DNA from: Candidatus Freyarchaeum deiterrae
Lineage (GTDB): Archaea > Asgardarchaeota > Jordiarchaeia > Jordiarchaeales > Jordiarchaeaceae
Assembly: GCA_037305845.1 (NCBI GenBank)
Contig: CP147778.1
Coordinates: 160,001-224,000, forward strand
Direction of reading: 5' to 3'
Length of the DNA: 64,000 nucleotides
Under the pieces are notes generated by a model. It ran no database searches, was not told where the DNA came from, and saw only the letters and a list, made by a program, of their open reading frames with translations. Below are positions 3,001 through 64,000 of the stretch, piece after piece (position 1 is the first letter of the stretch; each line of letters begins with the position of its first letter). The translations under genes and the position numbers were made by a program.

Positions 3001-6000
3001 TCCATATAGGCACAGTACAAACTGTAGACACTCTCGTTTCCGCCTACCCAGGTAACCAGTGCGTTGTCGTTTCTGTCAAATGTTACCGATGGGCTTTCTT
3101 TGGTTTCGTTTAGAGTGGTGACTAGGCCTTCTGGACCCCAGCTGGTTCCGTCCCACATTGCGTACATTAGTTGTGTGTCTGAGGTGGTGGATAGGTTGCC
3201 GTCTAGGTCTCTCACCCAGCATGCTATGACTCTTCCTTTCGAGTCGTGTGCTAGAGAGACGCTGTAATCCATAAAGCTATTGTTTGTGAGGGCAGCCTCA
3301 GGTGACCACTGGGTTCCGTCCCACACAGAATAGTATAGGTCCGTGTCATTTGTTGTGCTAATATTACTGTCCGTGTCTCTAACCCAGACTGCTACTACTT
3401 TCCCATCCGGGCCCGCGGTGACAGCGGCTGAACCGTCTGCGAATGTGTTGTTCGTGATTTGTTGGGGTGCGCTCCACGCTGAGCCGTTCCAGATGGAGTA
3501 GACGATCTCTTGGTTTTTAAACAAGTCCACAAGGTTGTCCGATTGTGGGGTTACGTTGCTGGGAACTCTTGACCAAACGGCTATTACATTACCGTTGGAA
3601 TCGTAGGTTAAGGCGGGATCGAAGTTATAATAGTCGTCGTTGGAGACATATCCGGAAGTACCCCAACCTGTGCCATTCCAGGTAGAGTAGCAGATGTTTG
3701 GGTAAGTATTATTGCCATCTGTTCTCCCCTGAACCCATACCATCATAGCGTTTCCATGGTTGTCTGATGCGATTCTTGGACTAGTATAGTTGGTTGCCGA
3801 CGAGGGTTCAACTGGTATTAAACTTGCTGGACTGCGCCATTCCCAGACCACTGTTTGAGGAACAAAGGGTATACCGAATGCCCATGCACTAACTTGTAGT
3901 CTGAGACCGAACAATGGATCACCATAAGAGGACTGAAGATGGGGAGAAGTTTCGTCTTTTGTTTGGTTAAGAACTATGCCTATATTTGTATAGACACTTG
4001 CTTCAATTCTTGCTCCAACAAATAAAGCGTTTAATTCTCCATATAAGGTTCCCCTTAGCATGATGCCAATGTAACTTGCTGTCCAAATTGGATCCAAGCT
4101 ATTACCTACATACTTTTTTTGTGTGGTATAATTAACTCCAATAGAGATGTCCCCGCCAAGCCTAAATCCCAATCCTAGATCTATTTCTGTCGAGCCAAAA
4201 TATAACTTAATGAAGAACCCAAATCCAACTCCCTCACGTTGGGTATAGCTTGCAGTTACGCTTGTTGTCATGATATAGTCTTGGATATTCAGATCGTTAT
4301 CAACTGTGGGTTCTGCCCTGTCAAAACGGCTAACTTCAGCGCCTCCTATGCTTCCCTTATAGGTAGCTTCCATTCGATATTTAGCAACTCCATTTACGTA
4401 GTAAATTAGTGTTTTGTTTAAAGAATATTCGCTCGCGAAACTCAGTGTCTTCAGAGTGTCGCCAAGCCCCGGCAACGCCTGACTAGCATCCTCACCAGTC
4501 TTATCGAGATAGGTGAATTGGTACCCTATTGACTCAATGTTTACTGTAACGTATTTTTGCTCTGCGGGGTACCACTCGATTTGCTGATTGGGCCATTTAA
4601 ACCATTTGGGTAATTCGATTGCATGAATGGTAATGGTTTTCGTCTCTGAGATTAAGCCCAACTGATCGTAGGCTGTTATCTTCAACGTGTTTTGTGATGT
4701 GGTTAGGCTGCCCATGTTGAGTGCGCATTCCCATGAGCCACCACTCACTCTAGTAGCATCATATGTGATACAGTTCAGTTCGAAGACGACCTTTACAACA
4801 AGATCTGGGCCTTCGTTGTCGAGGATTACCGCCGTGAACTTGTTAATCACATCGACTCGAACTATGAAGGTTCCCAAATAATCTGAGCGTTTCCAAACTC
4901 CAAATTCTGAGCTTACGCTTTGTACAGCGGGTCTGGAGGCGTAAATATTTTTCTGCGCCACGTTGTTAGTTTCATCTATTTCTTCAATGGTATTGCCTGG
5001 GTCTACCACGACTTGAACGGTGTGGAATTGATCGAATGTCCAACTCACCGAAACAGTTTTAGATTCACCGTGCAGGAGACCCCCGATTGTTTGATTTGAC
5101 CCTATCTGTGTGCTATTGCCGTTTTCATCTATGTCAAAGAAGATAACCGTAATCGGCCCCGTGTAGTCTGCGCCCAAGTTTGTTACAGTAGCATAAATGT
5201 ATACTGTTCCACCAACTTTCCCCAAGGTGATGTTCTGCGGAGAGATCGCGAAGTCTGGTCCAACAGCGAAGGATACTGATTCGGTGGCATAGTTATGCGC
5301 CATGTCGAAGGCTGTTACGTAAAAGGTGTGATAACCTACAACCAGGCTGAGCGTGTAACTGGTAGTAGTATTTCCCACGTTGATCCAGCTGCCAGCGTCA
5401 AGCTTGACCTCGTAGTGGTCTATGACACCGTTGTCGCTACCAGTCCAGGTGATATCAACACTGGTGACATTAATGAAGGCTCCATTACTGGGTGAGGTTA
5501 TAGTCACGATTGGTGGGAGGGTGTCCGCCATGAATGTTTCCATGTGAGGCGTTGACATATTGACTGTTCTTGGGTTGTTGAAGAACCAGGCTGTGGAATT
5601 CCACACGGTGACGACCGGGGTGCAATCAGTCATTGTATCATTTCCCGTGAATATACTGTAAGGGACAACGATCTGTGGGGTTAAACCATCCAGGTCGGTT
5701 CTTGGGTCCGAGCCTCCAAAGTGAGGTGTAGCATACCATACCGTTCTATTGGTTTCAACCTTAACATCCACACCCGAAATTGCATAATTTAGAGAATCTG
5801 TGGCGTTCACAAGCAGGTAGTTTCCAAAAAAGCTACCAGTAAAATCATTATTACCGCTGTCAGAAGACCAATAGTATCCCACAGTACAGTTTAAAGCAAT
5901 GTTGCGCGAAAGATTATTGTTTGAGCTTTGGGACAGGTAGAAGCCGCCATTGCTGTTGTTCGCGGTGTTGCCCGAAAGAGTATTGTTCAAGCTTTGGTGC

Positions 6001-9000: not shown

Positions 9001-11564
9001 AGATTGTTTAAACTATCTACTAGGTAGAAGCCGTCGTAGTAGTAGTAGTGGTAAAAGACGTTTACGGTGTTGCCTGAAAGAGTGTTGTTAGAGCCGTAGG
9101 ACAGGTAGAAACCGTAGTAGTTGTTGTTTAAGGTGTTGCCTGAAAGAGTGTTGTTAGAGCCGTAGGAAAGGTAGACGCCGGCACCATTATTGTTTGCGGT
9201 GTTACCCGAAAGAGTATTGTAAGAGCTGGAGTTTAGGTAGAAGCCTATACCCTCGCTAGTGGTTGCTAGGAAATAGGCTCGGAGATGATTGTATCTTCCA
9301 ACGTCTCCTTCTGCCATCAGTACATTATTAATGTATATTCTTGCATGCCAAGCGTAGTTCGGCACGTAACCAGAGCACGCATACTCGACGTAGTGACTCC
9401 CTAAGGAAACGTGTATTATAGTGGTGTAGGTAAATGAATAACCAGTTCCATCTTCGTCGAACATGTAGCCTAGATAATTCCAGAAGTCATTGGGAAGAGG
9501 TTGATCTAAAGACAAGCCATGTAACCTCCCGCAGGTGTCAGTGGTATTATGCGCCACAATGGTGATATTCACGGTAAAGTCGTAGATTTTTGCGATGACT
9601 GCGGTGTTGCCCGAGAGAGTGTTGTACGAGCAACTTTCCAAGTAGAAGCCTTCACGGCTATTATCTGTGGCGGTGTTACCAGAGAGAGTATTATACAAGC
9701 TATATACTAGGTAGAAGCCGGCACCATTATTGTTTGCTGTGTTAGCTGAAAGAGTATTGCTCAAGCTTCGGGACAGGTAGAAGCCGTAATCGTTGTTGTT
9801 TGCAGTGTTAGCTGAAAGAGTATTGCTCAAGCTACTTTCCAGGTAGAAGCCCCATCTGTTGTTTGTGGCAGTGTTACCCGAAAGAGTGTTGTTTGAGCTT
9901 TGGTAAAGGTAGAAGCCGTAATCGTTGTTGTCTGCGGCGGTATTACCAGAAAGAGTATTATATGAGCTTTTTTCTAAGAAGAAGCCCCAAAAATTATTGT
10001 CTGCTGTATTATTCGAAAAAGTGTTGTACAAGCTAGATGACAGACAAAAGCCGTAGTGGTTGTTGTTTGTGGCGGTGTTGCCCCAAAGATTATTATACGA
10101 GCTAATTTCCAAGAAGAAGCCGTAATCGTTGTTGTCTGCGCTGTTGCCCGAGAGAGTGTTATTTGAGCTTCGGGACAGGTAGAAGCCGTAATCGTTGTTG
10201 TCTGCGGCGGTATTACCAGAGAGAGTATTGTACGAACTATAGGACAGGGTGAAACCGTAGTACACGTTGTTTGTGACAGTGTTACCCGAAAGAGTATTGC
10301 TCAAGCTTCGGGACAGGTAGAAGCCGTAATCGTTGTTGTCTGCGGTGTTACCAGAGAGAGTATTATCGTTCGAGTTATATAGCAGGTAGAAGCCGTAGTA
10401 GTTGTTGGTTGCGGTGTTGCCCGAAATATTGTTGTTCGAGCTATCTACTAGTGAGAAGCCCTGGCCAGTGTTGTTTGTGGCGATGTTACCAGAAAGATTG
10501 TTGTACGAGCCGTTTTCCAGGTGGAAGCCGTCTTGCCCATTTTTGTTTGCGGTGTTACCAGAAAGAGTGTTGTACGAGCTATCTACTAGGTAGAAGCCCC
10601 ATCTGTTGTTTGTGGCAATGTTACCAGAAAGAGTATTGTACAAGCTAGAGTACAGGTAGAAACCTTCACCAGTATTGTTTGTAGCAATGTTATCCGAAAC
10701 AGTATTGTACAAGCTGTTTTCCAGTTGGAAGCCATCGTGGACGTTGTTGTTTGCGGTGTTACCAGAAAGAGTATTGTTTGAGCTATCTACTAGGTAGAAG
10801 CCCCATCTGTTGTTTGTGGCAGTGTTACCTGAGAGAGTATTGTTTGAGCTTTGGTAGAGGTAGAAGCCGAGGTTGTTGTTTGTGGCTGTGTTGTTTAGGA
10901 TTGTGCTGCCCTGTGAATTGTAGAGGATTAGACCGTTGTAGCCCTGTGTTATGGTGTTGTTCTCGATCCATGTGTTCTCCGTGTATACTGTGAGCCCTTG
11001 TTGGTCGGGCCAGGAGCCGCTGTTGTCTCCGCAGTACTTCACCCGGCTGTTGTTCATCTGGAAGGTTGCGTTTTCGTAGACTGTGAAGTAGTAGGGGTTA
11101 GCCGGGTTGATGGCGGTTATTGCGGAGGATTCGTTGATGTACAGTCCTCCGTAAACCTGGACGCCGTACTGGATGGGAATGATGCCGTTGTTCACGTTTA
11201 GTATACAGTGGATGAGGTGCAGCTCTCCGTTTTCCGTTATTTTGAGGTTTCCGTTGAGGGTTATGTTGAGGTCTTGTGAATAGTTGACGTCGCTTATTGT
11301 GGGGTTTGTCCAGGTTACGTTCGTGTAGGAATCAAATGGGTCATTTGGGTTGTTTGTGTCTTTGCTGGCTGGGTTGTTTTGGCTGTTTAGGGGATTTGGG
11401 ATGGCTGATTTGTTGTTTAGTGTGAAGATTAGTAGTTGTTGCTGTTGGTTTTGTGTTTGGTTTTGTGCTGTGATTATTGCAGCTATTGGGAGTATTATTA
11501 TTAGCAGTAGCGCGATAATCGTTATTATGATTTTTATGGGTGATTTCATTTTTTTATTTCCCAT
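1..11564 (-). CDS. Giant secreted/surface protein (>3850 aa, 3' end outside window): signal/TM segment, two right-handed parallel beta-helix (NosD/CASH-like) blocks, Ig-like domain, about 5 CARDB domains, about 5 C-terminal Ig-like (OmpL47-type) repeats
   Basis: Manual translation starts MGNKKMKSPIKIIITIIALLLIIILPIAAII; dozens of GFYLxxSSxNTLSGNTAxNN repeats; CARDB-type VDPxNxIxExNExNN motifs; DKTPPVTAISLxGxxGLNGW repeats. The frame at 11564 matches the frame at position 5, and the ORF track lists no terminated ORF in this frame. Alternative start 11549. Confidence 0.9.
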   Translation of the reverse strand, partial: MGNKKMKSPIKIIITIIALLLIIILPIAAIITAQNQTQNQQQQLLIFTLNNKSAIPNPLNSQNNPASKDTNNPNDPFDSYTNVTWTNPTISDVNYSQDLNITLNGNLKITENGELHLIHCILNVNNGIIPIQYGVQVYGGLYINESSAITAINPANPYYFTVYENATFQMNNSRVKYCGDNSGSWPDQQGLTVYTENTWIENNTITQGYNGLILYNSQGSTILNNTATNNNLGFYLYQSSNNTLSGNTATNNRWGFYLVDSSNNTLSGNTANNNVHDGFQLENSLYNTVSDNIATNNTGEGFYLYSSLYNTLSGNIATNNRWGFYLVDSSYNTLSGNTANKNGQDGFHLENGSYNNLSGNIATNNTGQGFSLVDSSNNNISGNTATNNYYGFYLLYNSNDNTLSGNTADNNDYGFYLSRSLSNTLSGNTVTNNVYYGFTLSYSSYNTLSGNTAADNNDYGFYLSRSSNNTLSGNSADNNDYGFFLEISSYNNLWGNTATNNNHYGFCLSSSLYNTFSNNTADNNFWGFFLEKSSYNTLSGNTAADNNDYGFYLYQSSNNTLSGNTATNNRWGFYLESSLSNTLSANTANNNDYGFYLSRSLSNTLSANTANNNGAGFYLVYSLYNTLSGNTATDNSREGFYLESCSYNTLSGNTAVIAKIYDFTVNITIVAHNTTDTCGRLHGLSLDQPLPNDFWNYLGYMFDEDGTGYSFTYTTIIHVSLGSHYVEYACSGYVPNYAWHARIYINNVLMAEGDVGRYNHLRAYFLATTSEGIGFYLNSSSYNTLSGNTANNNGAGVYLSYGSNNTLSGNTLNNNYYGFYLSYGSNNTLSGNTVNVFYHYYYYDGFYLVDSLNNLLSGNTATTNGVGFYLVDSSNNTLSGNAANNNDYGFYLKDSSYNNLSNNTATNNNLYGFCLESSSYNTLSVNTATNNYYGVYIDSSSYNTLSSNTATENGYGFCLVDSSYNNILSGNTANNNNEYGVYLSYGSNNTLSGNTVDNNGYYGVYLESSSYNILSGNTVDNNYYGVYLSYSSYNILSGNTANNTNNWYYSGDYYGFYLEDSSYNTLSGNTANNYYYGFGLYFSSNNTLSGNTANNNNYYYLYYGGYYYGFYLEDSSYNTLSGNTANNYYYGFGLYSSSYNTLSGNTANNNYNGYYYGYYYVFYYGFYLEDSSYNTLSGNAANNYCNGFGLYSSSNNNLSGNAANNNGYNGFYLVDGSYNTLSGNTATNNYNYGFYLEDSSNNNLSDNTATDSSIGFYLVDSSYNTLSGNTATNNYNYGFYLEDSSNNNLSDNTATDSSIGFYLVDGSYNTISGNTATNNTDYGFYLYSSSYGFYPLYSSSSYNTLSGNTANNSGTGFYLVDGSYNTISGNTATNNTDYGFYLYSSSYYFFPPYSPSSSSYNTLSGNTATDSSIGFYLYRSTYNTLSNNTAANNVVFGCGWAGFNLSYSSYNNLSGNIAINFITGYYWSFYSFSNNFTGSVWENYLRVEVTDVRGLPFPGVEIMVETDGTTVYATSFFGGLNDTTDPNGLTPWIAVPYKTFTGINQMTESITHVTVWYSSPWAVAEFSNNPRIVDMSTSHVETIQQQYTNITWTNPTITEINYSQYLNINLDGDLTITETGELHLIKCKLNVNDGYTPVQYGVKVYGGMYINDSSIITAINPANPYYFIVYENATFQMNNSRVEYCGYGSSSIDENGLVIRADNTWIENNTITQGYNGLILYYSQGNTILNNTATNNYYGFYLVNSSYNTLSGNTANSNAYCGFFLENSSYNTLSGNTANSNAYCGFFLENSSYNTLSGNTANSNAYCGFFLENSSYNTLSGNTANSNAYGFSLHSSLNNTLSGNTATNNLLGFYLHQSLNNTLSGNTANNSNGGFYLSQSSNNNLSRNIALNCTVGYYWSSDSGNNDFTGSFFGNYLLVNATDSLNYAISGVDVKVETNRTVWYATPHFGGSDPRTDLDGLTPQIVVPYSIFTGNDTMTDCTPVVTVWNSTAWFFNNPRTVNMSTPHMETFMADTLPPIVTITSPSNGAFINVTSVDITWTGSDNGVIDHYEVKLDAGSWINVGNTTTSYTLSLVVGYHTFYVTAFDMAHNYATESVSFAVGPDFAISPQNITLGKVGGTVYIYATVTNLGADYTGPITVIFFDIDENGNSTQIGSNQTIGGLLHGESKTVSVSWTFDQFHTVQVVVDPGNTIEEIDETNNVAQKNIYASRPAVQSVSSEFGVWKRSDYLGTFIVRVDVINKFTAVILDNEGPDLVVKVVFELNCITYDATRVSGGSWECALNMGSLTTSQNTLKITAYDQLGLISETKTITIHAIELPKWFKWPNQQIEWYPAEQKYVTVNIESIGYQFTYLDKTGEDASQALPGLGDTLKTLSFASEYSLNKTLIYYVNGVAKYRMEATYKGSIGGAEVSRFDRAEPTVDNDLNIQDYIMTTSVTASYTQREGVGFGFFIKLYFGSTEIDLGLGFRLGGDISIGVNYTTQKKYVGNSLDPIWTASYIGIMLRGTLYGELNALFVGARIEASVYTNIGIVLNQTKDETSPHLQSSYGDPLFGLRLQVSAWAFGIPFVPQTVVWEWRSPASLIPVEPSSATNYTSPRIASDNHGNAMMVWVQGRTDGNNTYPNICYSTWNGTGWGTSGYVSNDDYYNFDPALTYDSNGNVIAVWSRVPSNVTPQSDNLVDLFKNQEIVYSIWNGSAWSAPQQITNNTFADGSAAVTAGPDGKVVAVWVRDTDSNISTTNDTDLYYSVWDGTQWSPEAALTNNSFMDYSVSLAHDSKGRVIACWVRDLDGNLSTTSDTQLMYAMWDGTSWGPEGLVTTLNETKESPSVTFDRNDNALVTWVGGNESVYSLYCAYMDNTTGTWSEPEIVHEDPSFISKPTINVDQKNTAVIVWRGFVYNATENYFNGQICYATKNLSDPNAIWSGVKYLTNDNETNWMPSACITQPSNNLLVAWDKEGVVSNLTHPIKPDLALDSSDITFSNNYPSEGEIVNIMARVRNIGDVDAYNVRVDFYDGDPNSGGFLIGTQRINYLPYDGEVNVTCPWIAKPGTHNIYVVIDSLGSISEIDETNNVAYKSISTLPDLTVSPTDITFSKYNPSAGETITISATIHNQGGTSAENVLVQFYSNSVLIGSQTIPLLGSNDSTTVSTAWTAAAGQNNITVVIDPNNVIAEFNKENNVASTTMSILPDLEATGISLSGHELLPGENVTITTEIRNSGNADATGVLIEFFDGNPYINGTLIYSETTNLPMGGTHTSSFVWTPPQGIHQVFVVVNRENLIAESNETNNVQYDELVVKLVPDLTVLVPEIMMKPGYVKIIAPIQNIGEAGATGVVVALYDGDPATGGTMINGATILNIAAGETVNVSLTVYHPPVNEYLYIVVDPENTITESNETNNEATIKYIADLTPPTTTIDLSGTPGLNGWFVSPVTVNLTASDDLSGVDMTQYSFDNTTWNIYTGPFTITTEGVTTLYYNSTDNAGNVENTSTEVIMIDMTPPVTAISLSGTPGLNGWFTSNVDINLTANDNVSGIAMTEYSFDNTTWNTYTEPLTITAEGVTTVYYKSIDVAGNVETAKSETIKIDKTLPVTAISLSGVLGLNGWYISNVNVTLSPIDNTSGVNITEYSFDGTTWVTYTGPFTLTAEGSTTVYYNSTDNAGNMEATKTEIIKIDKTPPVTAISLNGTSGLNGWYTSNVNFYLSATDNVSGLNITEYSFDNTTWNTYKGPFTITAEGITTIYYRSTDNAGNVETTKSETIKIDKTPPTTVLIIGTHYTDGNGSIYVTSSTVFALTATDATPGSGVANTYYRINSGNWTLYVGAFNITGPIGTYTIDYYSVDNAGNKETPKTTTVIMEEAFQGC
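6078..6336. repeat. Perfect 69-bp tandem repeat, about 3.75 copies (one 23-aa beta-helix coil each)
   Basis: Unit GTAGGCGTTGCTGTTTGCAGTGTTGCCCGAAAGAGTATTGTACGAGCTATTTTCCAAGAAGAAGCCGCA starts at 6078, 6147, 6216 and 6285 (partial). Confidence 0.95.
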
Positions 11565-53684: not shown

Positions 53685-53770
53685 ATTGCGCGATTCTAGT
53701 TGAATCTTATAAGATATAAAAGGATTTGAAAAATTAGTAATTTAGTATAATGGTAAAACTTATTAAATTT
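53685..53770 (+). promoter_or_regulatory. Conserved promoter, copy 0
   Basis: ATTGCGCGAT at 53685; CTTATTAAAT TATA element starts at 53759 (offset 74). Confidence 0.65.
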
Positions 53771-53789
53771 ATGTGTAAGTAGATTGATA

Positions 53790-54175
53790 ATCGAGTCCAA
53801 AATGTTTCCCAACTTAACCCGACAAATCTCAGACCCACCGGGAAACATTGACGGATGAGAAAACGAATCCAAAAATAAAAATGACAATGGTTGTCAACTC
53901 CCACGAAGAGTATATGCACCCACGCACCCGAAAATGCTTACCTGGGAAGGAAAAGGCCCGAGGGGACCAGGGGGATTCCCAGGCGAGCAACTCCATTTTC
54001 ATTAAAACCTCTAACTAGTCACAGATGTAACTTCTAAACTTTCCAGAATTTGGTGTTCTATACTCCATTATGGTTTGAAATGTGGGACATTGCACTGCTG
54101 GTAGGTGGCTTCACAACTTCCCGTGGGAACCGGCGAAGGTAATGTAATAACCCGAAAGATAATGAAAAATGGGAA
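53790..54175 (+). ncRNA. Putative structured ncRNA, divergent relative of the BHB RNAs
   Basis: No credible ORF; stems 53801-53810/53840-53849 (perfect 10 bp), 53935-53948/53976-53989 and 53993-54004/54160-54172; same promoter as copies 1-3. Ends approximate. Confidence 0.45.
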
Positions 54176-54318: not shown

Positions 54319-54897
54319 TTACCACATTTTTCCTTTGTAATGCTGCATTATGGGGCAACCGAGGCACTTTTTTTCTTTGTATCTCTTGCATTCGGTGCAA
54401 AGGTATTCGGATCCGCAGAGCGGTCTATCCATAATGTTTATTTTCATTTGGTAGGGAAGGTTTAGGTCCTTTGCGGCTGAAATTATAATGTTGAATTCGA
54501 CGTCTTTGACCTCTGGTAGTCGTCCTAGGTGGCATTCCACTACCGACTGGAGGGTTGATATATCCTCGCCTATGAGAAGCATGAAGACGCTATTTTTTCC
54601 TGATATTGTGAATCCGTTGAAGAAGTGTGGACAATTTTTGAAAATTTCCAATATTTTTTCGCTGTCTGTAGTGGAAACCTCGACTTTGGCAATATAGAGT
54701 CCCATTTTTAGGGGATTTACTCCGCAAATCCTCTGGAATACGCCCATCTCCTTCAGTTTTTTTAGCCTCATAGCTACTGAGGGTTGGGACAGCTTAATGA
54801 TCTCTGCTATTTGTTCCTGAGGAATATCTGGGTCTTCGCTCAGAAGCGATAATATCTCACGGTCTTTCTCATCCAGTTTAACTGCGGGCTCTGCCAT
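54319..54897 (-). CDS. Lrp/AsnC-family regulator with Cys-rich C-terminal extension
   Basis: LDEKDREILSLL..LSQPSVAMRLKKL HTH, RAM domain, C-x5-CxxC-x7-CxGCP tail. Confidence 0.92.
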   Translation of the reverse strand: MAEPAVKLDEKDREILSLLSEDPDIPQEQIAEIIKLSQPSVAMRLKKLKEMGVFQRICGVNPLKMGLYIAKVEVSTTDSEKILEIFKNCPHFFNGFTISGKNSVFMLLIGEDISTLQSVVECHLGRLPEVKDVEFNIIISAAKDLNLPYQMKINIMDRPLCGSEYLCTECKRYKEKKCLGCPIMQHYKGKMW

Positions 54898-54941
54898 ATC
54901 TATTTACCAATTATGGAAATTCTTTCCAGAGTTATAAGAAT

Positions 54942-55027
54942 ATTGCGCAATTTCCGTTAAATCAAATAATTTATAATGAATTTGGCTAAAATAATAATAA
55001 AATATATTAGTTATTTTTATTAAATAG
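54942..55027 (+). promoter_or_regulatory. Conserved promoter, copy 1 (divergent from lrp)
   Basis: Perfect palindrome ATTGCGCAAT 54942-54951; TTTATTAAATAG at 55016 (offset 74). Confidence 0.75.
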
Positions 55028-55044: not shown

Positions 55045-55400
55045 TACGAGAAGCATAGACAAAAACAAGTTTCAACTAACCACACAAAAACCAGGAGAAT
55101 CCACCTGGAAGGTTTAGAAAAACCGTCAAGAAAACTATTCCCCAAGAAAGTGCTATGGCTCCCGCTAAGCTTACTTGAGGGGTGGGCCCCGAATTGCTGG
55201 GGAGGAGGCCCCCCCTAAGTAAGCACAAACCTCGGATGGATGCGCTCAAACGAGAATGCAGTCGATGACTCACGAGTTTAGATGCGTGAATGAAAGAGCT
55301 TCGCAGGCTAGCAATAGTATTATGTTTATTGCTGACCACCCACCCTCTCTCCCTCGCACAGTCTGTGGAGCCCCATTAAACACGCACCCAAAACAGAGTG
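55045..55400 (+). ncRNA. BHB-containing structured ncRNA, copy 1 (predicted excised segment 55295-55379, 85 nt)
   Basis: GCGTG-AATG-AAA-14 bp helix...helix-CATT-AAA-CACGC (55284-55385); invariant 26-mer 55333-55358; upstream hairpin 55169-55224. Ends approximate. Confidence 0.75.
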
Positions 55401-55561
55401 ATTAAAAACGGACATGACAAGTTGTGCAGAAGTTTAACAAATGTTACTGAGAATAGAAACAAAGACCTGAACACAGAAAGAGACGAATCAACGCATGACC
55501 CTTTATGAAAAACATCATTAAAACTCAAGAAGTATAACTAAAAAGTTAAGGAGGCAAATGG

Positions 55562-55720
55562 ATGACAAATACTCTTACTATAAGAGAAAAAGCCACACTG
55601 GTAGTGGACTTCGATACCTGGAGAGACTTGAACCAGCTCAAAACCGAACTCGGTCTAAAAACCATTGACGATACCATAAAACATTTAATAAAAGAAAACG
55701 GTAACGGCGGCAAGAAGTAG
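55562..55720 (+). CDS. 52-aa ribbon-helix-helix-like protein (not in ORF track)
   Basis: MTNTLTIREKATLVVDFDTWRDLNQLKTELGLKTIDDTIKHLIKENGNGGKK; GGAGG SD at 55550. Confidence 0.7.
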   Translation: MTNTLTIREKATLVVDFDTWRDLNQLKTELGLKTIDDTIKHLIKENGNGGKK

Positions 55721-55841
55721 AAGCTTTCAAATGCAACGTACATCTATTCAATCTTTCTAGTAAAATGATGTATGCATAGTCAGTTCCTCTGTTTTGCACT
55801 ATCTTTTGATTGTAGAGGTGTAAAGGATTAGGTGAGAATGA

Positions 55842-55994
55842 ATGCCAGAAGTTTATTGTGAGATTAAGAAACGGAAGGTTGATGGGGGATTCTGCGCATA
55901 CATGTGTGAACTCCCAGAAACCGAAAAGAAGATCGCTTACAATCCCTTCAGAGGGATACAAACAGACTGCAGCTTCAGCAAGGAATCCTCATAA
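55842..55994 (+). CDS. 50-aa four-Cys small protein (not in ORF track)
   Basis: MPEVYCEIKKRKVDGGFCAYMCELPETEKKIAYNPFRGIQTDCSFSKESS; GGTGA SD at 55831. Confidence 0.55.
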   Translation: MPEVYCEIKKRKVDGGFCAYMCELPETEKKIAYNPFRGIQTDCSFSKESS

Positions 55995-56115
55995 ACAGAA
56001 GAAGTCAGTATAAATGCCAGATTAGGGCATAGTTCATTTTAGCGAGTCGTCTGCGGTTGAGGAGCATCCCGGCGCACTTTGCAGCCTTTTCTTAGCTATG
56101 CCGATCAATCTGCTA

Positions 56116-56481
56116 CTATTGTAAGTGTTCTTTGATTATACTTAGCAGGTTTTCAATTTTTATAGGTTTGAGTATGTAACCGTCTGCACCCTTGTTTACG
56201 GCTTCGATGGCGCTCCGCATTGTAGGATAGCCGGTAACCATAATTTTGACCATTTTGGGGCTGGCATCATTAATAGCAGCCAGAAGTTTTGTTCCTTCCA
56301 TGTCCGGAAGTCGAACGTCTATTAATGCTAGGTCGTAAGAATTGGTCTTGGTTTTTTCGATTGCTTCATTTCCATTTTCTGCCGTGTCGACGGTGTATCC
56401 TTCTTCTTCTAGTATTTTTGTTAGGATGCTTCTTATGCTTTCATCGTCATCGACAACAAGAATACTGGCAGGCCCACCCAT
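56116..56481 (-). CDS. Single-domain response regulator (receiver)
   Basis: ILVVDDD, LIDVRLPDMEG phospho-Asp, VTG, YILKP. Confidence 0.93.
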   Translation of the reverse strand: MGGPASILVVDDDESIRSILTKILEEEGYTVDTAENGNEAIEKTKTNSYDLALIDVRLPDMEGTKLLAAINDASPKMVKIMVTGYPTMRSAIEAVNKGADGYILKPIKIENLLSIIKEHLQ

Positions 56482-57004
56482 ACTACTCCCACCATTAATT
56501 TTTGTATTTGATTAGAAGATTTCCAAAGTCCCGCATTTTCCAATAGCGCCTTCCGCGTAGATCCATTCATAGTACATTTTTCGCAGTATCGAATAATAAT
56601 ATTTTATAAACCTTGCAAGAATCTACGCTGCACCGTTTTCTACTTTTTCTGAAAAGTCAAATTCTCCTATACGTATATAATCAATGGTTTTTCTTCAGAA
56701 ACTTTTATGGCTCCCAGATTTAATATTATTATTAATCAGTCTAATCATCTTTTTAAGGCGGAAAGCTTCATTTAACTGCCACACTTCTCCTATAAAAAAC
56801 TATTCAAAAAGTATAATAAAAAAGATATTTTATTCACGCTTTATAGATTTAAATGAGCGCTAATAGTTGAGAAATAAATTAGTAGACGATTATAATTGCA
56901 AAAATACAGGCTTCAAATGGAATTTAATTCGAATCTTGAACAGGTCCACAAACCATATCCAAAAGTTGAGGCTAAATTCCGGGGACAATACAGAGGAGCT
57001 AAAT

Positions 57005-59158
57005 ATGGGAAAATTGGTAGAGAAAACGGAACCCGTTAAAATGCGAAAATCAGGGATCGAAGTTCTGGGCGACATCCCTTGGGGAACACACCTCTGTCAA
57101 TTCTACGAAACCAAGGAAGACCTGCTCGATATTCTAGTGCCCTACTTCGCTGAGGGCCTAAGAGACAATGAATATTGTATATGGGTTACTGCCCCACCCT
57201 TGGACACCGAGGAAGCAAGGGCATCGCTTCAGGAAGCGGTTACCGAATTGGAAAATTATGTGGAGAAGGGGCAGATTGAGATTCTTCCATACACGGATTG
57301 GTATCTTCTCAATGGAGAGTTTGACGAGAACAGGGTTCTTAATGGATGGGTGGAGAAAGAGAAAAGTGCCCTCGAGAGGGGTTTTGAGGGAATACGTCTT
57401 ACGGGGAACTTTATTTGGAGTGAAAAGAAATTTTGGAAAAAGTTCGTAGCATATGACGCAAAAATTAGTGAAATAATTGGAAGGCACCGAATGATTGCTA
57501 TCTGCGCTTACTCTCTTGAGAAATGCACCGGAAACGATATTGCTGATGTTATAAGAAACCATGGGAACGCACTGATTAGAAAGGGAAAATCATGGTTCTT
57601 AGTTGAAGACAGTTCGAAACATAGATTGGAAGATAATAAAGTCGTTGGCAGCCTGACAAAGTTAATGAGAAGCGAAGAGAAATATCGGCAACTAATAGAA
57701 AATTTGAATGAAGGGATTTGGCTCATCGATAAGGAATCCAGGACTACCTTCTGCAATGAGCGTATTTCGGAGATTTTGGGATACACGGTGGACGAGATGA
57801 TTGGTAGGAATTTATTTTCGTTCATGGATGAACACGGTGTGGAGATTGCCAAAAAACTGTTAGAACGCCGCAGAGAGGGAGTAAGAGAGGATCATGATTT
57901 CGAATTTATTCGTAAAGATGGGGCAAGGATTTACACGCGTTTAGGTACGTCACCAATCATAGACGAAAATGGAAATTATGCTGGTGCGCTTGCTGCGGTC
58001 ATAGACATCACAGAACGCAGGCGTATGGAAGAAGAACTGGAGAATTCGGAAAAGCGTTATAAGGAACTGTTCAACAACACTGGTGACGCCATCTTCATCC
58101 ATGACTTGGAAGGTAAATTTCTAGAGGTTAACCGTGTAGCCTGTGAACGCCTCGGCTACAGCCGGGAAGAATTCCTACGGATGAGCCCAATGGACATAGA
58201 CACTCCAGAATATGCAGCCATAGTACCTGAACGGATGGAGGAGCTACGCCAGAAAGGTCAAATCATATTCGAAACGGCTCACTTGAGACGCGACGGCTGC
58301 GACTGCATCCGCATACCCACCGAACTGAGCAGTTGCCTCATTGAGTATGATGGAAAGCCAGCTATCCTCAGCATCGCCAGAGACATCACCGAGCGTAAGA
58401 GAATGGAGGAGGAGCTCAGACGTTACTCCGAGCACCTTGAGGAATTGGTCGAAGAGAGAACAAGAAAGCTGAGAGAAGCCGAGCGGATGGCCGCTATTGG
58501 TGAGACTGCGGCCATGGTGGGCCATGACCTCCGCAACCCGCTGCAGAGCATTTTCGGCTTACTTTATTTAGCTAATAAAAACTTGAATTCTCAAGCCACT
58601 TCAAATGGGAAACAGAAAAATGACTTGGCTGAGTTGTTGCAAACAATCGAGGGACAGGTGGACTACATGAACAAAATTGTTTCTGATCTAGAGGATTACG
58701 CGAAGCCAGTGAATCCCCAACTGGTTGCGACGAGCGTACACCAGCTAATCGATGACACATTCTCAGCGAGAACAATTCCTGAAAATGTTAGAGTCTACAT
58801 GGGAATTGAGGAGGACTTACAACTGGCGATTGACCCCACTATGATGCGGCGTGTATTAGCCAACTTGATTGAAAACGCAGTTCAAGCCATGCCAAACGGA
58901 GGCCAGCTGAAGATAAAAGCTTCCAAAAAGGGGGACTCTGTACTTATAGGTGTAGAGGACACAGGTGTGGGCATACCGGGAGAGAATCTGTCCAAACTTT
59001 TCCAGCCGCTATTCACCACCAAGGCTAAGGGGCAGGGGCTCGGATTAGCCGTCTGCAATAGGCTGGTGGAAGCCCATGGTGGCAGCATTACGGTGGAGAG
59101 TGAGGTGGGTAAAGGCTCAACCTTCACAGTCGAAATACCGCTTAAAAAGATGAATTAA
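57005..59158 (+). CDS. MEDS-PAS-PAS-HisKA-HATPase soluble histidine kinase
   Basis: GTHLCQFYET (MEDS), two PAS/PAC, GHDLRNPL, ENAVQAM, DTGVGI, FTTK..GQGLGL; start ATG 57005 after GAGGAG. Confidence 0.93.
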   Translation: MGKLVEKTEPVKMRKSGIEVLGDIPWGTHLCQFYETKEDLLDILVPYFAEGLRDNEYCIWVTAPPLDTEEARASLQEAVTELENYVEKGQIEILPYTDWYLLNGEFDENRVLNGWVEKEKSALERGFEGIRLTGNFIWSEKKFWKKFVAYDAKISEIIGRHRMIAICAYSLEKCTGNDIADVIRNHGNALIRKGKSWFLVEDSSKHRLEDNKVVGSLTKLMRSEEKYRQLIENLNEGIWLIDKESRTTFCNERISEILGYTVDEMIGRNLFSFMDEHGVEIAKKLLERRREGVREDHDFEFIRKDGARIYTRLGTSPIIDENGNYAGALAAVIDITERRRMEEELENSEKRYKELFNNTGDAIFIHDLEGKFLEVNRVACERLGYSREEFLRMSPMDIDTPEYAAIVPERMEELRQKGQIIFETAHLRRDGCDCIRIPTELSSCLIEYDGKPAILSIARDITERKRMEEELRRYSEHLEELVEERTRKLREAERMAAIGETAAMVGHDLRNPLQSIFGLLYLANKNLNSQATSNGKQKNDLAELLQTIEGQVDYMNKIVSDLEDYAKPVNPQLVATSVHQLIDDTFSARTIPENVRVYMGIEEDLQLAIDPTMMRRVLANLIENAVQAMPNGGQLKIKASKKGDSVLIGVEDTGVGIPGENLSKLFQPLFTTKAKGQGLGLAVCNRLVEAHGGSITVESEVGKGSTFTVEIPLKKMN

Positions 59159-59304
59159 GCTGAACAAGAAAAGTTATAGATTTTAAAAAATCTCTCTAAA
59201 ACTGGAGCTAAAAAAATAACTTAAATCTCAAAAACAAGCATCAACAAATTTTTAAATTAGAGTGCCTCGAGGAGTAGCAGCCTAAGCTAATAGTCCGGTA
59301 ATTT

Positions 59305-59366
59305 GCTATTGGAAATTTATGGCTCTTCGTATAGAAGAGTTGATGTTTCATGCACTTTTGTGCAGT
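59305..59366 (-). pseudogene. Decayed remnant of the lrp 5' end
   Basis: Reads HETSTLLYEEP* versus REILSLLSEDPD in the intact gene, at the equivalent position relative to the promoter. Confidence 0.5.
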
Positions 59367-59418
59367 ACAAGAATCTGTTTTGCTATTTTTCATGAGGTTT
59401 CTGTTGAATTATAAGAAT

Positions 59419-59504
59419 ATTGTGTAATTTCAATTAAATTAAATAATTTATAACAAAATTTTCAATAATAATAATAAATTATCATAGTTAGTTTTATTAA
59501 ATAG
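59419..59504 (+). promoter_or_regulatory. Conserved promoter, copy 2
   Basis: ATTGTGTAAT at 59419; TTTATTAAATAG at 59493 (offset 74). Confidence 0.7.
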
Positions 59505-59521
59505 TTTTGCTCTAATTAAAA

Positions 59522-59873
59522 TACAAGGAGCTTTAAAAAAATCTCAGAACCGTCCACTTGGGAGGCATACAAGGACCAGCAGGGAATTCCCCCGAGAAAA
59601 CGCTGGCTCCAGCTCTGCTTGCGGGAAGGGGGATTTAAAACTGCTTGGGGCGGAGGACTCCTAAATGTTGGGAGGAGGCCCCCCACCTTAAGCCCGCGTC
59701 CTCCAGAATGGGCGACTTCAGTGATCCAGTAATACAGAACTAAAAGTTTAAAGCGTGAATGAAAGAGTTTCACAGACCCCAAATAATATTAAGATAATGG
59801 ATAGATGACCACCCACCCTCTCTCCCTCGCACGGTCTGTGAAGCTCCATTAAACACGCACCCAAAACAGAGTG
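59522..59873 (+). ncRNA. BHB-containing structured ncRNA, copy 2 (predicted excised segment 59764-59852, 89 nt)
   Basis: BHB 59753-59858 with inner helix GAGTTTCACAGACC/GGTCTGTGAAGCTC; invariant 26-mer 59806-59831; upstream hairpin 59643-59693. Ends approximate. Confidence 0.75.
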
Positions 59874-60035
59874 CCTAAAAAGACTAAAATGACGAATTCC
59901 ATAGCGCATCAGAGAGAGCACAAGCGGTATGAATAAAAACAACTAACCAAAAAACGAATTGAAGTATGACTTTTACGAAAAAAATCATTAAAGCTTTTGA
60001 AAAGTTGATTAAAAAAAAATTAGTGATGAACATAA

Positions 60036-60188
60036 ATGCTCAAAAGGAATAATAGAATAGAAAAAACTACACTGGTAGTGGACCTTAATGATTTAATCTT
60101 GAAAGAACACAGTGCTCTGAAGCAGATCCTGAAAGAAATCACAAAGGATTACTATTCAATACAGCGAAAGAACACAATCTCTCAGTAA
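60036..60188 (+). CDS. 50-aa ORF partly homologous to the RHH-like protein (possibly degenerate)
   Basis: MLKRNNRIEKTTLVVDLNDLILKEHSALKQ...; shares EK(A/T)TLVVD and the upstream ATGAC..TTTA.GAAAAA.ATCATTAAA motif with 55562..55720. Confidence 0.4.
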   Translation: MLKRNNRIEKTTLVVDLNDLILKEHSALKQILKEITKDYYSIQRKNTISQ

Positions 60189-60271
60189 ACGTTGAAAGCA
60201 CGGCTGTAAAAAAGGAGTAATTCTTACAAAACATTCAATTAGACTAAAAAGTCTGGAAGCAAGAAGACGCG

Positions 60272-60352
60272 CCTGTAAAGATTATTGTCGACCACTATGA
60301 AAGTGTAAGGAAAGATTTAACAAACATGAGCGAAAGGAGAATACGTTTTTGA
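60272..60352 (+). pseudogene. Possible receiver-domain remnant
   Basis: PVKIIVDHYESVRKDLTNM resembles PASILVVDDDESIRSILTKI; stops early and has no start. Confidence 0.35.
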
Positions 60353-60815
60353 AGAAAAAACGATCGAGCCCGAGCCCCAAACGCTTTAATAGTTTTAGCG
60401 TCTCTGCCCTCTGATTTTAAACTATTTCATTTCATTAAGTGTTTTATAGCTTGGTCAATGGTTTTAGACTGGGTTCGGTTTTTAGCTTGCTCAAAGCTCT
60501 CCAAGTATAAATTCTGAATACGACCAATCGGAATTTATTACTTCGAAGGATGCCTATAATTTTTATAATATTTCCAATTAATTTTTATCAAATACGCAAC
60601 CCTTTTAAATGAAGACTTCTTGCAGTTTTATTAAATAAGAACTATTTAGAATATTATGATAAAATAGTTAGTGTTAATTAAGCGGTAAGAGTTAGAAATA
60701 GGGTATATAAAAAATTTTTAAAAAACCTCACTGGTATGAGAAGCTAACATTAAACCAGTTGGCATCATATTTAGAGTTAAGAGAAGTCTGAGGGAAGAAA
60801 GGAAGAGGTTAAGGT

Positions 60816-62594
60816 ATGGTAAAATTGGTGGAGGAGATAGAAAATTCTGCCTTGCGAAAATCTGGAATTGAAGTTCTGGGCGACATCCCTTGGGGAACAC
60901 ACCTCTGTCAATTCTACGAAACTAAAGAAGATATGAAAGATATTCTGGTGCCCTACTTCGCTGAGGGCTTAAGAAACAATGAGATGTGTATGTGGGTGAC
61001 CTCAATACCTTTGGGAGTCGAAGAAGCAACAGCGGCGCTTCGGAAAGCGGTTCCTAACTTGGAATATTACGTGGAGAAGGGGCAGATTGAGATTCTTCCG
61101 TACACGGAATGGTACCTTCTCGGCGGAGAGTTTGATATGGACAGAGTTCTGAATGGATGGATTGAGAAGGAAAAAAGCGCTATTGAGCGCGGGTTTGATG
61201 GGTTGCGTCTTACTGGAAACACTTTCTGGCTTCAGCGGAGCCTCTGGCAAAGCTTCGTGGACTATGAAGCAAAAATAAACGAGGTGATCGGGGAGCACCG
61301 AATGGTCGCCATTTGTACTTACTCGCTTAAAAAATGCACCACCAGCGATGTTATCGACGTCATGAGAAACCATGAGAGCACATTGATTAGAAAGGGAAAA
61401 TCCTGGTTCCTAGCTGAAGATGTCACAAAGCGTAAAATGGCGGAGAATAGGGCTACAGAGAGCCGGACACAGTTGAAGAGAAGCGAAGAGAAATACCGCT
61501 TACTAATAGAAAATTTGAATGAAGGGGTTTGGGTTTACGATAATAAAATCTTGACCTCTTTTGTCAATGAGCGCATGGCTGAGATGTTGGGATACACCGT
61601 GGATGAAATGATTGGTAAACATATATTTTCATTCATGAATGAAAAGGGAGTGGAGATTGCCAAAAAAAAGTTAGAAAGCCGGAAACGGGGAATCGCCGAA
61701 GTTCATGAATTCGAATTTGTCCGAAAAAATGGGACTAGAATTTACACGCAAATAGGTGAATCGCCTATCATAGGCGAAGATGGAAATTTTGCTGGAGCAA
61801 TTGCTGCCGTCACAGATATCTCAGAACACAGGCGAATGGAGGACGAGCTTAGAAATTATTCCGAGCGCCTAGAGGAGTTGGTTGAAGAGAGGACAAGAAA
61901 GCTGAGAGAAGCCGAGCGGATGGCTACAGTAGGTGAGCTGGCTGCTACAGTGGGCCATGATCTCCGCAACCCGCTGCAGAGCATTTTCGGCTTACTTTAT
62001 TTAGCTAATAAAAATTTGAATCCTCAAGCCACTTCAAATGGGAAACAGAAAAATGACTTGGGCGAGTTGTTGCAAACAATAGAGGGACAGGTTGACTACA
62101 TGAGAAAAATTGTTTCTGACCTTGAGGATTACGCGAAGCCAGTGAAGCCTCAACTGGTTGAGACCAGCTTACACCAGCTAATCGATGAAACATTCTCAGC
62201 GATAACAATTCCAGAGAAGGTTCAGGTTTCTATCGGAATTCAAGAGGACTTTCCACAGCTGATGGTTGACCAAGCAATGATGCGACGTGTATTGGACAAC
62301 CTAGTTACAAACGCAGTTCAAGCCATGCCAAACGGAGGTCGACTGACGATAAAAGCATCCGAAACAGATGACAATGCGCTCATAATCGTAGAGGACACGG
62401 GTGTAGGCATACCTGAAGAGAATCTCCCAAAGATTTTCCAGCCACTGTTTACCACAAAGCCTAAAGGTCAAGGGTTCGGATTGCCGGCCTGCAAGAGGCT
62501 GGTGGAAGCCCACGGTGGCAGCATCACGGTGGAGAGTGAGGTGGGTAAAGGCTCAACCTTCACAGTCAAAATACCACTCAGAAATATGAAGTAG
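60816..62594 (+). CDS. MEDS-PAS-HisKA-HATPase soluble histidine kinase
   Basis: Close paralog of 57005..59158 with one PAS domain; GHDLRNPL and N/G1/F/G2 boxes. Confidence 0.94.
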   Translation: MVKLVEEIENSALRKSGIEVLGDIPWGTHLCQFYETKEDMKDILVPYFAEGLRNNEMCMWVTSIPLGVEEATAALRKAVPNLEYYVEKGQIEILPYTEWYLLGGEFDMDRVLNGWIEKEKSAIERGFDGLRLTGNTFWLQRSLWQSFVDYEAKINEVIGEHRMVAICTYSLKKCTTSDVIDVMRNHESTLIRKGKSWFLAEDVTKRKMAENRATESRTQLKRSEEKYRLLIENLNEGVWVYDNKILTSFVNERMAEMLGYTVDEMIGKHIFSFMNEKGVEIAKKKLESRKRGIAEVHEFEFVRKNGTRIYTQIGESPIIGEDGNFAGAIAAVTDISEHRRMEDELRNYSERLEELVEERTRKLREAERMATVGELAATVGHDLRNPLQSIFGLLYLANKNLNPQATSNGKQKNDLGELLQTIEGQVDYMRKIVSDLEDYAKPVKPQLVETSLHQLIDETFSAITIPEKVQVSIGIQEDFPQLMVDQAMMRRVLDNLVTNAVQAMPNGGRLTIKASETDDNALIIVEDTGVGIPEENLPKIFQPLFTTKPKGQGFGLPACKRLVEAHGGSITVESEVGKGSTFTVKIPLRNMK

Positions 62595-62831
62595 AGTGAA
62601 CAAGGAAAGTATCCAGATTATGGATAATGAAATTCAAGTCTAAAAAGCACCAACAAATATTAAAAAATAAAAGTATTCAAACTGAGGATTTGATTTTTGG
62701 GTTCCGCGTTAATTAATAATATCAACTTTAAATTTTCAGCCAGTAAGGTCATAATCCTGCCCCTCTTGCCTAAGGAGAAGCTTGATCCTTTTTTTTTATT
62801 AGTTATGGGTTTCCTCTGAATTACAAAGAAT

Positions 62832-62917
62832 ATTGCGCAATTCTAGTTAAATCGAATAATTTATAGTGAAATTTATTACACAAATTATGAATTATAATAG
62901 GCAAATTTATTAAATAG
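62832..62917 (+). promoter_or_regulatory. Conserved promoter, copy 3
   Basis: ATTGCGCAAT 62832-62841; TTTATTAAATAG at 62906 (offset 74). Confidence 0.75.
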
Positions 62918-62934
62918 TTACTAGAGATATATAC

Positions 62935-63260
62935 AAAGAAGAAAACACTTAGCCCAACTACAAATACAACAGAGTTACACTAATCCTGGCGGTATGGAAT
63001 GGCGGAGGAAATTACAGGGCTCCCAAAAGTGCTTCAACGGAGGATCCCTCAAATGCTGGGAGGAGGAGGGGTCCTCCCGGAAAGCACACGCTTCAACTGA
63101 AGACTGCACTGGAATTGGTAATTCGGAGTTTAACGGGTTGGTTTAACGCGTGAATGAAAGAGTTTCACAGACCCCAAATAAAATTATGATAATGATGACC
63201 ACCCACCCTCTCTCCCTCGCAGGTCTGTGGAGCTCCATTAAACACGCACCCAGAACAGAT
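62935..63260 (+). ncRNA. BHB-containing structured ncRNA, copy 3 (predicted excised segment 63159-63241, 83 nt)
   Basis: BHB 63148-63247; invariant 26-mer 63196-63221; upstream hairpin 63029-63087. Ends approximate. Confidence 0.75.
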
Positions 63261-63643: not shown

Positions 63644-64000
63644 CTAGATGAGACTGAAAACGTTAGAATTTGAAAGGCTGGGATCGAATTGTTAAAGGAT
63701 GTTTGTTTGGGGACGCACCTCTGTCAATTCTATGAAACTAAAGAAGATCTTATCGATATTTTAGTTCCCTATTTTGCTGATGGTTTAAGGAAGAATGAGT
63801 TTTGTATGTGGGTGACCTCGCCACCCTTGGTAGTTGAGGAAGCGTGGGCTGCACTTCGGAAAGCGGTCCCTGACTTGGAGAAGTACAGGGAGAAGGGACA
63901 GATTGAGATTCTTCCGTACACGGAATGGTACCTTCTCGGCAGGGAGTTTGATATGAATAGAGTTCTGAATGGATGGGTGGAGAAGGAAAAAAGCGCTATT
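63644..64000 (+). pseudogene. Third MEDS-domain sensor, partial at window edge, with in-frame TGA near the N-terminus
   Basis: LDETENVRI*KAGIELLKDVCLGTHLCQFYETKEDL...; TGA 63671 aligns to CGA (Arg) of both paralogs; a TTG restart at 63689 is possible. Confidence 0.65.

Follow-up and report, generated by a model that had tools for sequence, protein, structure and literature searches.

A genus-restricted family of bulge-helix-bulge RNAs in Asgard archaea with a conserved insert that may be excised as a small circular RNA

Introduction

To our knowledge, few substrates of the tRNA splicing endonuclease EndA lie outside tRNA and rRNA, namely the cbf5 mRNA, one Haloferax 5′ untranslated region (UTR) and the Thermoproteus signal recognition particle (SRP) RNA, and the excised introns with a function are C/D guides. 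The box C/D guide in the euryarchaeal pre-tRNATrp intron is a functional RNA freed and circularised by EndA and a ligase. Here we describe three bulge-helix-bulge (BHB) stems in a 64,000-nucleotide (nt) stretch of the genome of Candidatus Freyarchaeum deiterrae (contig CP147778.1, positions 160,001 to 224,000), referred to as a whole as the window. Each stem encloses an insert predicted to be excised, and the stems belong to a real, previously undescribed RNA family restricted to one genus; no description of these RNAs was found in the literature.

Several described systems resemble this locus in part. Haloferax volcanii HVO_1309 carries a BHB intron in its 5′ UTR that also lies outside tRNA and rRNA, in a non-coding leader before a protein gene, and shares the expectation of a circular intron and a lineage-limited conservation (Schwarz et al. 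2020, PMC7714728). That intron measures 46 nt, whereas the predicted insert described here has 81–89 nt, is the most conserved part of its putative transcript, is duplicated and homogenised, and persists independently of the downstream gene. The circle of the pre-tRNATrp intron is listed in the same source (PMC7714728); unlike that guide, the present insert has a host that is not a tRNA, carries no conserved C or D box, and yielded no target in rRNA or in the genome. The permuted, BHB-circularised SRP RNA of Thermoproteus (PMC4731332) likewise comes from a gene of its own, in which the segment flanked by the BHB is turned into a functional circle, but that circle is known and about 300 nt long, whereas the one considered here is predicted, about 85 nt long and without an Rfam match. 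Pre-rRNA processing stems and ligated spacers likewise have long helices around a BHB and a leader joined to a trailer, but no rRNA is enclosed here and there is no similarity to the rRNA flanks of this genome. Two further precedents serve as analogies only: freed tRNA introns of yeast, reported to regulate mRNA by pairing (PMC13079951), for excised introns, and the alphaproteobacterial CcsR/cuckoo CCUCC RNAs for C-rich loops acting on mRNA. The Rfam CcsR1 match was weak, scoring 18.7 bits where the cut-off is 65, and fell on the opposite strand.

Three BHB stems in the window

A preliminary description, made from the sequence without database searches, had placed the three stems on the + strand (Table 1), and we recovered them there with an outer helix GCGUG/CACGC, a central helix AAUG/CAUU and a 14-base-pair (bp) inner helix. 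An AAA bulge lies 3′ of the central helix on both strands, and a single A·C mismatch occurs in the inner helix of copy 1. Cleavage after the second bulge base would give inserts of 85, 89 and 83 nt in copies 1, 2 and 3, in agreement with the circles first proposed, and both proposed junctions were reproduced, CCAUUAA/AGAG for the circle and GUGAAUGAA/ACAC for the predicted exon ligation. Fold z-scores against shuffled sequences were -3.95, -6.10 and -5.85, respectively. Similarity and covariance-model searches identified only three intact copies in the F. deiterrae genome, all in the window.

A genome-wide BHB scan recovered tRNA-like introns, and the 14-bp inner helices of the window stems were the longest among the hits listed. 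With at least 5 outer and at least 11/12 inner pairs, the scan returned 60 canonical and 52 mirror-polarity hits; when at least 5 G-C pairs were also required, 6 hits of each kind were obtained. Because canonical and mirror-polarity hits are nearly equal in number, BHB geometry alone is weak evidence, and the weight rests on conservation among the 12 homologs described below. The + strand had originally been assigned from bulge polarity and G·U usage. The polarity supports this assignment, but the wobble argument fails across the homologs (12 G·U against 12 A·C cells in the BHB stems), so we rely on promoter orientation, bulge polarity and the downstream open reading frames (ORFs), and treat wobble counts as uninformative.

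Conservation and covariation within the genus

We obtained 12 distinct homologous copies, drawn from three metagenomic contigs and from all six genomes that GTDB lists for the genus. In a covariance-model search, the five other genomes of the genus yielded one ortholog apiece, and contigs reached through the neighbouring Lrp/AsnC protein supplied four further distinct copies, two of which share one contig. The model gave no match in the sister family and no homolog in 145 further Asgard genomes; other Asgard families searched by covariance model or pattern were also negative, within the limits of strict filters and few scored candidates. Scanning metagenome contigs for exact patterns returned nothing useful, and viral contigs gave no match, or one chance match inside a phage ssb-like gene.

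The 3-4-3 geometry seen in the window is preserved in all 12 homologs, which have 3-nt A-rich bulges, 4-nt central strands, an insert of 81–89 nt, an outer helix of 3–5 or more bp and an inner helix of 12–14 bp. Four central pairs form in 8 of the 12 copies (canonical) and three in the other four (relaxed), and paired cells amount to 92.9% across the 12-copy alignment. Compensatory changes, first noted among the window copies, extend to the homologs as two-sided changes at the outer pair (U-A, C-G or G-C), the first central pair (A-U, G·U or G-C) and a small internal hairpin of the insert, UGGYU/GRCCA (U-A or C-G). Tolerance of a central mismatch, as in the relaxed class, draws on two sources (PMC12397907; bioRxiv 10.64898/2026.10.13.758758); this class is also permissive by chance.

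In the relaxed orthologs L027, L028, L029 and L030, a downstream UCUAC is complementary to the GUAGA.. loop of the internal hairpin, which makes an H-type pseudoknot within the insert possible. The same four carry an extra hairpin and a U-tract in the trailer.

Selection and homogenisation of the insert

Between copy 1 and its ortholog in Ca. Jordarchaeum madagascariense, of the same genus, the insert is 83% identical in its stems and 84% in its loop, whereas the leader (58%) and trailer (59%) lie close to the shuffled baseline of 54%. In the same comparison, 24 of 53 four-fold sites of asnC are identical (45%). These values suggest that the insert is selected beyond its flanks, and that the insert rather than its host is the main selected unit. 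Leaders pair by orthology (copy 3 with L037b, 82%, support 100/100; copy 1 with L037a, 72%), while inserts pair within a genome (L037a with L037b, 95%; copy 2 with copy 3, 90%; orthologs, 83–85%). Taken together, the orthologous leaders and the within-genome likeness of the inserts indicate that the duplication predates the species split and that homogenisation was limited to the insert. The paralogous leaders are just 53–61% identical where the inserts reach 90–95% (L037:4444-4563 and 9494-9615; window copies 2 and 3).

Promoter module, leader hairpin and probable regulon

Two further elements of the unit, a promoter and a conserved leader hairpin, were absent from the earlier description. 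The promoter module precedes all homologs for which sequence is available, and its TATA box lies 213–291 nt before the BHB copy. Searches with the module, which contains the palindrome ATTGCGCAAT, gave 9 matches in the genome and none in shuffles. The six other sites, at genome positions 527202(+), 952119(+), 3319809(+), 3422564(-), 614350(-) and 611205(-), lie before protein genes, of which several look longin/roadblock-like on inspection. The module defines a probable regulon in which the BHB RNAs are joined by a secreted protein, a Zn-finger ORF and several small proteins of the longin/roadblock-like type, and its spacing suggests a multi-site regulator of the Lrp/AsnC type. The leader hairpin lies 85–117 nt upstream of the 5′ cut site; its stem is free to vary in sequence while pairing is kept, and its loop of 13–18 nt ends in a near-invariant (C/U)UGGG(G)AGG.

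Processing enzymes and proposed mechanism

The genome encodes two EndA paralogs and RtcB. One paralog has the catalytic Tyr/His/Lys motifs and the other is structural and lacks them, which corresponds to the (alpha-beta)2 type of enzyme. The complete genome of Ca. Freyarchaeum deiterrae comprises 3,576,204 bp, and 92–95% of the tRNA genes in these genomes bear introns (PMC11291895). Because EndA reads shape, the three canonical copies are likely to be cleaved if they are transcribed. The structure, its conservation, its gene context and the presence of the enzymes are observed; transcription, cleavage and circularisation are inferred.

We propose that a regulated promoter drives a non-coding host in which a 190–260-nt leader bearing the conserved hairpin is followed by the BHB insert and then by a trailer, possibly extending into a ribbon-helix-helix (RHH) gene. 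The (alpha-beta)2 splicing endonuclease would cut both bulges after the second base, and RtcB would ligate the exons into a GUG-NNUGAAA-CAC hairpin and close the 81–89-nt insert into a ring with a 12–14-bp stem, the small hairpin UGGYU/GRCCA and a C-rich strand left exposed. The ring would most likely be a stable regulatory RNA, co-produced with the regulon that includes the longin/roadblock-like genes, and its C-rich strand might, speculatively, bind a G-rich, Shine-Dalgarno (SD)-like RNA or a C-rich-RNA-binding protein. In our judgement there is about an even chance that a selected regulatory module, probably circular, is cut out of a non-coding host by EndA and RtcB, and that the ring acts in trans. 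A tentative extension, to which we assign less than even confidence, is that the locus represents a dedicated archaeal gene, regulated by a transcription factor, that exploits the tRNA-splicing pathway to produce a small circular regulatory RNA. By analogy, such a gene might be a non-coding host with a functional intron, like eukaryotic small nucleolar RNA (snoRNA) host genes and tRNA intronic circular RNAs (tricRNAs), a parallel that we draw equally cautiously. If it holds, Asgard archaea would use tRNA splicing to make regulatory circular RNA from an insert that is itself selected, duplicated and regulated, and a snoRNA-host-like gene would exist in the archaeal group closest to eukaryotes. 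Exact junctions are predicted, which makes the claim directly testable. Its breadth is limited, as the RNA is found in one genus only, and its function is a proposal.

Several observations weigh against excision of a trans-acting ring. ViennaRNA favours a shifted 2-3-2 register over the BHB central helix, whose probability is 0.12–0.3 in the window copies and about 0 in the four relaxed orthologs; among four control tRNA-like BHBs of the same genome, one is also low (0.15) and three reach 0.83–1.0. The shifted register pairs 32 of 36 cells, compared with 44 of 48 for the BHB, and the closely related orthologs G001/3/4/5 have a C·A or C·C mismatch at the second central pair. The compensatory changes among the 12 copies overstate the number of independent events, the homologs being mutually related. 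Every known homolog carries the insert: an intron-less allele with the exact exon junction was found neither in the F. deiterrae genome nor by a leader-anchored pattern in 301 genomes. Only UGRCCACCC is common to all loops, the long C-rich tract being limited to eight copies. The C-rich strand gave no target in 16S and part of 23S rRNA that beat shuffled queries, and the genome holds only two non-self exact core sites, with no target above shuffles. Plain gene conversion at the DNA level, within the sole high-identity tract, could account for the homogenisation. Finally, the RNA and the RHH gene were jointly lost in L042 and are both decaying in L039.

Alternative explanations

The best-surviving alternative, which we consider somewhat unlikely, is a cis-acting 5′-UTR intron of the HVO_1309 type, for which that Haloferax gene is the precedent (PMC7714728). 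Splicing would determine how stable the downstream RHH mRNA is or how it is translated, perhaps by taking out a C-rich strand paired to the G-rich loop of the leader, and the ring would be a by-product. This bears on the original claim that the motifs are stand-alone genes. No tRNA, rRNA, Rfam family or interrupted conserved ORF surrounds them, as claimed, but they may not stand alone, as the same strand carries, further downstream, a conserved RHH gene that has an SD. The ancestral locus comprises a divergent Lrp/AsnC gene and a same-strand RHH-like gene of 52–61 amino acids (aa), which typically follows the stem by some 175 nt; in 10 of the 12 copies it starts within a narrow range of 158–183 nt after the 3′ splice site. 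The RHH gene shares the genus-only distribution of the RNA and is co-deleted with it in L042. Against this explanation, the RNA remains intact where the gene that follows is a decayed RHH paralog (copy 2), and likewise before a Zn-ribbon ORF in copy 3 and a kinase fragment in L037b. The transcripts could also be separated by a U-tract at +104 to +138 in 8 of 10 RHH-linked copies and by an AT-rich, TATA-like box that precedes most RHH starts by about 24–29 nt. In its favour, all eight canonical copies can pair the leader loop with one and the same CUCCC site of the insert (-11 to -19 kcal/mol), and in the four relaxed copies a better, CCUCCCA-type partner sits in the leader instead (p 0.004–0.016). 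This pairing exceeds composition shuffles in only one of eight copies, however (p 0.018; others 0.09–0.52), and shows no two-sided covariation. A leader-insert switch is possible.

A second alternative, which we regard as unlikely, is that the stem is never cut, and that a 7x7 internal loop and a near-invariant inner helix form a protein-binding or structural domain of an unspliced non-coding RNA or UTR of about 330–470 nt. Consistent with such a domain, the inner helix is conserved in sequence as well as in pairing, the central helix is broken in 4 of 12 copies, the shifted register is thermodynamically favoured, and an ACA lies 17–19 nt past the top of the loop in 11 of 12. Against it, shape is what EndA recognises, and eight copies have the strict hBHBh′ form; the bulges vary neither in length nor in A-richness, the first central pair is never A·C and covaries in the BHB register, and the organism has a broad-specificity enzyme type (see PMC12397907 for relaxed substrates).

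A third alternative, very improbable in our view, is a tRNA-type intron, selfish or neutral, that inserted into a leader and spread among paralogs by conversion or RNA-mediated transfer. In its favour, BHB introns are abundant in the genome (PMC11291895), the inserts are homogenised and a T-arm intron at genome position 1804237 begins with a similar GAGCUU/AAGCUC helix. Against it, the insert is far more conserved across species than flanks or synonymous sites, which largely refutes this origin, its internal hairpin covaries and no copies were found outside this locus.

Comparison with known RNA classes

The RNAs, which the preliminary description had not recognised, are indeed unmatched in Rfam 15, and covariance models placed no tRNA or RNase P above the gathering score; at E<=5-10, Rfam gave weak, inconsistent matches only. 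The RNase P RNA is located elsewhere in the genome. A coding-region BHB intron of the cbf5 type was rejected, as the AUG at the 5′ site is not conserved, four homologs having GCUG there, and the spliced frames are short and of unequal length. No rolling-circle or spliced ORF is conserved, and a 29-aa ORF is open in copy 1 alone; a peptide-coding RNA was rejected. The unspliced copy 1 frame (55290-55379) is signal-peptide-like, closed in the other copies checked and probably fortuitous. Because no start codon follows the SD-like loop of the leader, a leader peptide was also excluded. Box C (RUGAUGA) occurs in 1 of 12 copies and box D (CUGA) in 4, never together, which excludes a box C/D small RNA (sRNA); a box H/ACA sRNA was likewise rejected, with the ACA at 17–19 rather than 14–16 nt from the pocket and no tandem G·A motif in the alignment. 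A selenocysteine insertion sequence (SECIS) or kink-turn (K-turn) does not fit a 3′ strand that reads CAUUAAA, CAUUACA, CAACAAA or CACUAAA, never GA, and the neighbouring ORFs have no UGA interruption. The hammerhead core is absent, and DNA terminal inverted repeats would leave the staggered 3-nt inserts unexplained. A relic of the rRNA operon was rejected for lack of similarity to the rRNA flanks of the genome. A second copy of the 16S rRNA 3′ end and the following spacer occurs at genome position 1836140, about 30 kb from the 16S gene, with the rest absent.

Features of the window and neighbouring genes

Table 1. Features of the BHB RNA loci in the window
Feature	Coordinates	Strand	Basis or remark
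hBHBh′ stem, copy 1	55284..55385	+	sequence, fold z-score, alignment
Predicted excised insert or circle, copy 1, 85 nt	55295..55379	+	ends set by cuts after the second bulge base
Conserved core UGACCACCC, copy 1 insert	55333..55341	+	C-rich segment up to 55358
hBHBh′ stem, copy 2	59753..59858	+	predicted insert 59764-59852, 89 nt
hBHBh′ stem, copy 3	63148..63247	+	predicted insert 63159-63241, 83 nt
Promoter module, copy 1	54940..55026	+	ATTGCGCAAT palindrome, AT box, TATA box TTTATTAAATA (55016-55026)
Promoter module, copy 2	59417..59503	+	
Promoter module, copy 3	62830..62916	+	
Leader hairpin, copy 1	55169..55224	+	covarying stem, 12 homologs; loop ending CUGGGGAGG (55197-55205)
Leader hairpin, copy 2	59643..59693	+	partly degenerate
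Leader hairpin, copy 3	63029..63087	+	
Probable decayed fourth copy	53685..54160	+	promoter module and leader-like hairpin (53936-53988), no intact BHB
Divergent Lrp/AsnC regulator	54319..54897	-	syntenic anchor; candidate controller of the promoter
RHH-like ORF with SD, 52 aa	55562..55720	+	conserved downstream neighbour; MatP_C E=0.003, below cut-off
Degenerate RHH paralog without SD	60036..60188	+	40% identical to copy 1 RHH
Zn-ribbon-like ORF, 77 aa	63296..63529	+	different downstream gene, 54 nt after copy 3

The probable decayed fourth copy has its promoter module at 53685-53768 and insert-like fragments; it is absent from the syntenic L037 locus and was left unscored by the covariance model. 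In L042 (positions 2700-3590), a Jordarchaeaceae metagenome-assembled genome, the upstream half of the promoter module is kept and the TATA box, RNA and RHH gene are gone, so that the BHB RNA unit is dispensable at that locus there.

A Cys-rich ORF of 50 aa without a Pfam match follows the RHH gene at 55842-55994, and similar starts occur in L037 and L039. MEDS-PAS histidine kinases form a tandem array interleaved with the RNA copies (57005-59158, 60816-62594 and 63689-64000), accompanied by a convergent response regulator at 56116-56481.

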